From: Eledone cirrhosa
Taxonomy: Eukaryota
DNA length: 64,000 nt
Assembly (NCBI GenBank): GCA_964016885.1
Contig: OZ024743.1
Span: 84,692,001-84,756,000, forward strand
Reading direction: 5' to 3'
In this document: positions 1,635 through 2,004 of the stretch, piece by piece
Position numbering within the stretch: the stretch's first letter is position 1
How the letters are laid out: each line of letters begins with the position of its first letter
Made by a program: the position numbers and the translations under genes
The notes under the pieces: generated by a model
The model's input: the letters and a program-made list of their open reading frames with translations, nothing else
Told to the model about the DNA's origin: nothing
Database searches by the model: none

Positions 1635-2004
1635 ATAATATAAGATCAAAAGATGGTTAAAAGAGTTCCAAGTATTTTATTATGCGCATTTCAAAAACAA
1701 ATATCATCATGGGATGATATTTGCGTTCTCATCAGATAAAATAGGGAAACATGATATGAAGCTTAAAAAACACTTGTGAGCAGTGAAGTTTTTAAGCTTC
1801 ATATCATGTTACCCTATTTTATCTGATAAGAACGCAAATATCATCCCATGATGATATTTGTTTTTGAAATACGCATAATTAAATACTTGGAACTCTTTTA
1901 ACCATCTTTTGATCTTATATTATTTATACTCCAGTCCTATAAACTGTGGAGTGCTACTTATCCGATATTTGCATTGCTTTATTGTGCTGCAATAAAACTC
2001 ACCT

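Follow-up and report, generated by a model that had tools for sequence, protein, structure and literature searches.

What does it mean when an inverted repeat behind a protein-coding gene carries an intact hammerhead motif on one arm and a mutated one on the other? This question is raised by an insertion downstream of the CABLES gene of Eledone cirrhosa, in the 64,000-nucleotide stretch of DNA that we analysed as a whole (the window; AT-rich, 32.8% GC). The damaged motif lies on the sense arm, and the preliminary description proposed that selection against self-cleavage in a 3′ UTR had cost it its activity. Our analysis points to another answer: the insertion at 1630-2006 is a head-to-head pair of truncated copies, likely made via a Penelope-like element (PLE), and the damage to its plus-strand hammerhead is likely neutral decay, owing to the predicted trapping of the motif in a hairpin.

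The insertion downstream of CABLES and its family

CABLES (CDK5 and ABL1 enzyme substrate) has its last coding exon at 1057-1197 of the plus strand, as placed by translation and protein identity, with the stop codon at 1195-1197. The peptide of this exon is 96-98% identical to 18 octopod proteins, those with names being CABLES, and corresponds to residues 567-614 of a 614-amino-acid CABLES isoform. The start of the exon is spliced in RNA-like contigs of two to three related organisms, with alignment up to 1325, and one relative's contig extends 199 nt past that point; contigs from such runs are unable to mark an RNA end, and the zero cover across the element in the RNA-like runs of relatives (n=3) was not counted as evidence. 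The plus-arm hammerhead lies 619 nt after the CABLES stop, in agreement with the roughly 600 nt given in the preliminary description, and the octopod proteins confirm that the exon is the last coding one. Judging from motif scans and the relatives' contigs, the unique sequence after the stop (1198-1629, plus strand), which terminates in a (TA)n tract, is likely 3′ UTR. No AATAAA or ATTAAA was found between the stop and 1877, and the first AATAAA downstream of the stop is at 1991, in the tail of the insertion; it is plausible that the CABLES transcript reads through into the insertion. A further inverted repeat (2067-2554; 163-bp arms, 98% alike) lies directly past the (TA)n tract. No hammerhead core was found in it, and a long CABLES UTR would carry two hairpins, one from each repeat. 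The window also holds a SNF2L2/brahma-like gene on the minus strand (63804 to about 54229), and no host gene was found between it and CABLES among the 41 of 185 long open reading frames scanned.

The insertion (377 bp, copy 1 of family A) has both ends in (TA)n. It is built from two oppositely oriented, 5′-truncated copies of a single repeat end that meet head to head. The left arm (1630-1788, minus strand), delimited by alignments with copy 2 and by loose contig ends, is the longer copy and has no tail; the segment 1771-1788, seemingly a spacer, is this copy's own upstream sequence. The right arm (1789-1928, plus strand) was defined by alignment with the left arm, from which it differs at 4 of 140 positions (1811, 1828, 1871 and 1880). 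Between them, the junction at 1785-1795, located from the centres of copies 1 and 2, is a T-run followed by AA common to both truncated copies, and appears to involve a microhomology of about 4-6 nt. An unpaired tail of about 78-83 nt (1929-2006, plus strand) follows on the right side only, with its AATAAA and then (TA)n. The (TA)n tract hides any target-site duplication at copy 1. No conserved open frame was found in the arms, and a frame running open through the copy 1 tail was rejected as coding because it is closed in copy 2.

A second member of the family (16458-16770) lies inside a TA/TG microsatellite, part of an 8-kb TA/TG block at 10000-18400. It has an intact minus-strand hammerhead, and its tail-bearing arm lacks the core. 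Copies 1 and 2 share the same ends, with tails identical at 71 of 78 positions and left arms at 121 of 136; both have a one-sided tail, whose endpoint ahead of the TA repeats is identical, and all four ends lie in TA or TA/TG repeats. The junctions, however, differ between the copies: in copy 2 the arm with the tail measures only about 57 bp, against about 140 bp in copy 1, and begins at the stem III palindrome. It starts (16633-16640) some 8 nt before the predicted cut site, with a 3-nt microhomology. Within copy 2 the arms are mutually identical (56/56). At three diagnostic sites the arms of copy 1 agree with each other, and both arms of copy 2 have the other letters.

Further copies were seen in a DNA run (X12), a contig of which is identical to the window over 980-1598. 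The run gave 3535 contigs on this stretch and a summed depth over the element of 5e4-1.3e6 versus 9.4 on the single-copy flank, summed depth not being a copy number; we infer that family A is very abundant. Low depth on the right arm was not used for copy counts, as contigs with the intact letters fit the left arm better. Among the sites listed (12 of 24 in X12), most depth departs from copy 1 at seven, and at six of these (not at 1748) it carries the letter of copy 2, so copy 1 is not the commonest type. Loose ends at 1789 (13 contigs) and 1792 (19 contigs) continue the left-arm upstream sequence of other copies, and a further loose end at 2008 occurs in 10 contigs. Each of the nine joints listed has a coordinate pair of its own and occurs in a single contig, at depth 7-24. 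Taken at 80% likeness, with 20-29 letters on the shorter side, these joints underrepresent long right arms and leave out contigs with a better fit to the left arm; they were used for variability only. Metagenome pattern scans gave no match.

Variable junctions combined with shared arms suit a model in which every insertion joins its own two copies, truncated independently of each other. A fixed palindromic master, with a main subfamily missing the plus-arm core through one shared deletion, was considered and rejected: the consensus of the loose ends leaves copy 2 past the shared centre, and the joints differ from one another. The same variability bears on whether the element is instead a DNA transposon, either a MITE or a foldback element, that has long inverted repeats at its termini and spread from a fixed master with the hammerhead as a passenger. 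The element is short, non-coding, palindromic, abundant and TA-flanked, and the central sequence common to copies 1 and 2 at first suggested just such a master with a deletion. We nevertheless consider this origin very unlikely, because arm lengths (about 140 versus 57 bp) and junctions vary among copies, the repeat is followed by 78-83 further nt at one end but not at the other, and the summed depth in X12 declines inward from the outer ends.

Two hammerhead motifs and a predicted hairpin

The minus arm had been described as a complete minimal type I hammerhead, and at 1742-1674 all core letters and stems are indeed present: a 7-bp stem I, CUGAUGA, GAAA and AUA ahead of the cut site, with C3 at 1735, G8 at 1730, G12 at 1692 and a predicted cut after 1681. 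Stem II comprises 15 pairs and one C-U mismatch, and stem III is an 8-nt perfect palindrome (A15.1-UGCGCA-U16.1) with a self-duplex energy of -10.5 kcal/mol. Less of the description survives in the isolated fold: the minimum free energy (MFE) structure of the minus arm alone (-14.4) is a different one, the hammerhead fold reaches -9.0, and the centroid keeps only stem II. Such a preference for another fold in a lone arm is what a dimer-type motif would be expected to show.

On the plus arm (1816-1884) the two defects reported earlier are present, G8>A at 1828 and a stem I mismatch (U-U at 1820/1880); a third had been overlooked, a G>A change at 1871 that breaks the stem III palindrome and weakens its self-duplex to -2.3 versus -10.5 kcal/mol on the minus arm. 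The fourth difference between the arms, at 1811, falls outside the motif. The core CUGANGA ... GAAA ... UH in type I topology is thus found in the minus arm and in copy 2, and is broken at G8 in the plus arm. The plus-arm hammerhead is very likely dead, since its C3 faces A8, unlike the compensated U3-A8 variant described in PMC4209133. In the intact motif, AATAAA occurs within the 3′ strand of stem I (corresponding to 1877-1883), and the 1880 change leaves ATTAAA on the plus arm; this change may therefore matter more for polyadenylation than for the ribozyme.

A strict hammerhead descriptor gave three matches in the window (the minus arm, copy 2 and a GAT-rich low-complexity match at 56581). 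The same descriptor matched once in the reversed window and never in 100 block-shuffled windows; the hammerhead motif is more than chance. Rfam hammerhead models were not among the 17 matches to 1600-2020 up to E=10, and the 150 of 322 matches listed for the whole window were hairpin and microsatellite matches only. Covariation across five aligned arms was not above shuffles, and the substitutions in stem II of copy 2 keep pairing on one side. The stem II closing pair is G-U in four of the five arms and A-U in the other, the conserved G10.1-C11.1 being absent.

The SNF2L2/brahma-like gene on the minus strand holds, in one of its introns, a second head-to-head hammerhead insertion, family B (62732-62970). 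This insertion has the flanks of stems I and III in common with family A and a different stem II; its minus (sense) arm begins exactly at C3, without stem I, and its plus (antisense) arm carries G5>C. At the base of stem II, both families (1728/1693, 16503-16570 and 62858-62922) have a G-U closing pair, two further pairs and then a C-pyrimidine mismatch; this unusual shared base may represent a lineage-specific form of the 10.1-11.1 pair.

Folding in context gave a different picture from the motifs themselves. Forcing the hammerhead fold in full context costs 83.7 kcal/mol on the plus strand and 90.1 kcal/mol on the intact minus strand, and the pair probabilities of stems I and II were 0.0 in all six sequence contexts (three per strand). 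Whichever strand is transcribed, its antisense arm is made before the sense hammerhead, which occupies the 3′ arm. Along the nascent plus RNA (seven lengths), 90-100% of right-arm bases were paired to the left arm, and along the nascent intact minus strand (six lengths) 91-98% of bases were paired to the opposite arm. These folds, which are equilibrium predictions without helicases or editing, bury either motif in a hairpin of about 140 bp. RNA crossing the insertion would fold into this long hairpin, and in the CABLES transcript the hairpin would be a double-stranded editing substrate instead of a ribozyme.

The G>A changes at 1828 and 1871, opposite 1730 and 1687, make A-C mismatches in the predicted plus-strand hairpin. 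An A-C mismatch is a context favoured by ADAR. An editing-gated ribozyme at these positions is unlikely, since inosine at 1828 or 1871 would tighten the hairpin.

The palindromic stem III had been taken as the mark of a hammerhead that cleaves as a dimer. The minus motif is of that PLE kind, but the two arms lie on opposite strands, which makes a cis dimer impossible; no same-strand partner was found near the copy 1 hammerheads, and no second plus-strand core of family A was found in the window. The strand arrangement also bears on an origin as a non-LTR retrozyme, a tandem hammerhead repeat spreading via circular RNA. Type I hammerheads in short non-coding invertebrate repeats are described for such elements (PMC7229834), and the motif alone would suit one. 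We consider this origin extremely unlikely, because neither copy 1 nor copy 2 contains a same-strand tandem unit, and both arms pass through the cut site instead of starting there.

Decay or selection on the sense arm

Against this background, the proposal that selection against self-cleavage caused the plus-arm loss is not supported: the folding penalty of 83.7-90.1 kcal/mol, the capture of nascent RNA by the antisense arm and the lack of a cis dimer all speak against it. Since no activity is predicted even for an intact hammerhead on the sense arm, little reason for selection remains. As the motif is predicted to be buried in the hairpin, its mutation probably stems from decay and not from protection of CABLES RNA.

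The pattern of the changes is nonetheless one-sided. When polarised against copy 2, the changes at 1828, 1871 and 1880 all prove to have arisen in the sense arm, where they fall in the core, stem III and stem I, respectively. In simulations with four random changes, the sense core was struck and the antisense core left clean in 13% of cases (26% for either arm). At least three functional changes including the core on the sense arm, and none on the other, arose in 0.33% (0.65% for either arm), a figure that is post hoc, concerns one locus and assumes stem changes to be harmful.

Such one-sidedness, with changes at G8, the dimer palindrome and stem I, would be expected if the sense hammerhead could cut the CABLES 3′ UTR in vivo, through unwinding, protein help or a trans dimer, and selection had fixed successive disabling changes. 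Several observations are in keeping with this. At 1880 the intact letter accounts for 8837 of 9146 depth units in X12, there is no canonical poly(A) signal upstream of the element, and tandem hammerhead retrozymes of Xenopus are described as depleted from exons and introns (bioRxiv 10.64898/2026.07.22.740005). We still consider this scenario unlikely, since it would have to overcome the predicted folding penalty and capture during synthesis in a window without a second plus-strand family A core. In addition, G8>A alone should presumably suffice, later changes bringing no gain, and the simulation statistic is post hoc and from a single locus. The core of family B is changed on the antisense arm, a weak control given that its sense arm is without stem I.

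The one-sidedness could also have arrived with the insertion as a single event, if the template of the tail-bearing arm had been another donor RNA of the subfamily that had decayed beforehand, or if that arm had been made in a more error-prone step. This would account for all the polarised changes falling on one arm, and two templates are conceivable, given that both strands are cut and extended by the anole PLE protein, for which a dimer has been modelled (PMC11167929). It seems improbable, however, in view of the complete identity of the copy 2 arms over 56 positions and of the subfamily letters shared by the arms of copy 1. We therefore favour neutral decay after insertion: with two products of one repeat end joined at insertion, both arms would have been alike at the start and drifted later.

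If in vivo cutting and selection were nevertheless real, a head-to-head genic insertion would be a built-in paired experiment, with arms of equal age and place, and the abundant copies of family A would provide the first genome-wide readout of the in vivo activity of these ribozymes. More generally, genic paired arms offer an internally controlled test of PLE hammerhead cutting in vivo, a question that PMC4209133 and PMC11167929 leave open. This paired-arm test would be feasible on an assembly of the genome.

Probable Penelope-like origin and comparison with known systems

Other repeats in the window were considered for a connection to family A. At least 11 short-loop palindromes make up at least 4.6% of the window, in a listing that omits copy 2 and family B; besides those described above, they include 23770-24240, 34606-34761, 36712-37158, 44314-44528, 46411-46685, 47369-47593 and 47686-47895. 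The palindromes at 36940 and 44458 carry a CUGAUGA...GAAA motif on one arm. A decayed reverse-transcriptase remnant (35224-36370, plus strand) was recognised by a weak RVT_1 match and atlas matches to RVT_1 and HTH_animal clusters; by its motifs it appears Penelope-like. It showed no similarity to family A at the DNA level and no homolog at E<=0.001 among longer proteins. Another reverse-transcriptase fragment (about 44892-46255, plus strand, with the reverse transcriptase considered here at 44892-45557; RVT_1, E=3.8e-27) lies between two palindromes; it is presumably LINE-like, judging by its motifs, and was rejected as a partner of family A, to which it is unrelated. As no telomerase-like reverse-transcriptase and GIY-YIG reading frame in the window could be tied to family A, we infer a PLE origin for the family from its architecture.

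The proposed course of events borrows from known PLEs. A Penelope-like enzyme would nick an AT-rich target, and two cDNAs, one including the tail and the other not, would be primed from alternative 3′ start points. Both would be copied past the hammerhead, left uncut, and a microhomology of a few shared bases would then join these truncated cDNAs. Precedents for most of these steps are described for Poseidon of the anole (PMC11167929), whose protein, modelled as a dimer, cuts both strands of an AT-rich target and extends them. There, two internal reverse-transcription start sites define the tail, and uncut RNA is the template. The Poseidon ribozyme cuts only with the element's protein, G8C abolishes cutting, and insertion in vitro can do without the ribozyme. 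In Octopus vulgaris, Penelope-like families with recent activity are reported (PMC13282606). We found no paper describing octopus hammerheads in the open-access literature; the supplements of PMC4209133 list hammerheads by species, and cephalopods might be among them.

The hammerhead pair is real and belongs to a known kind of retroelement stump, described since 2013-2014; the locus is ordinary in this respect. It has likenesses to several systems. The palindromic Harbinger repeats of Xenopus tropicalis are likewise self-folding, a few hundred bases long and form tight double-stranded RNA in a host transcript, but they are DNA transposons with demonstrated ADAR editing, whereas the role of the hairpin here as a substrate is only predicted (PMC5625713). 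The same source describes an exceptionally high potential double-stranded RNA load and hyper-editing in octopus, and self-folding insertions like 1630-2006 may supply part of that load. Animal non-LTR retrozymes resemble family A as short non-coding hammerhead repeats thought to depend on PLEs, and differ in being same-strand tandems in which cis dimers are possible, copy 1 being an inverted pair (PMC7229834; bioRxiv 10.64898/2026.07.22.740005).

Closer in motif are the minimal type I hammerheads of PLEs, with a conserved core, a short palindromic stem III, a long stem II and solo or opposite-strand copies (PMC4209133). In that account metazoan PLE hammerheads have a palindromic stem III, are inactive as monomers and show low activity as dimers, and are found on opposite strands 100-700 bp apart (Cervera and de la Pena 2014, PMC4209133); the dimer model of cleavage is restated in a review (PMC6765202). 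The motif described here has 15 pairs in stem II versus 7-8 in the PLE hammerheads of Schistosoma, a stem I of 7 versus 4-5, and a G-U or A-U closing pair in place of the typical G10.1-C11.1 (PMC4209133). Its cut triplet, AUA, was the slowest of four tested in a viroid hammerhead (PMC1636495). Poseidon of Anolis carolinensis differs in that its reading frame starts inside the hammerhead and runs into the tail, while here no frame is open in both copies; its likeness lies in a mechanism that would explain both the two-strand extension and the tail (PMC11167929).

Endonuclease-bearing PLEs, finally, are described as inserting inverted 5′-truncated copies at (TA)n targets, with a tail of 30-40 bp at one end (PMC8557442, PMC3846280). 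The arms of copy 1 are stumps without a reading frame, and its tail of 78-83 nt is longer than the 30-40 described, which counts against the PLE reading. With such insertions copy 1 shares head-to-head truncated copies, a tail at one end, a (TA)n target, microhomology at the junction and a hammerhead in the terminal repeat.
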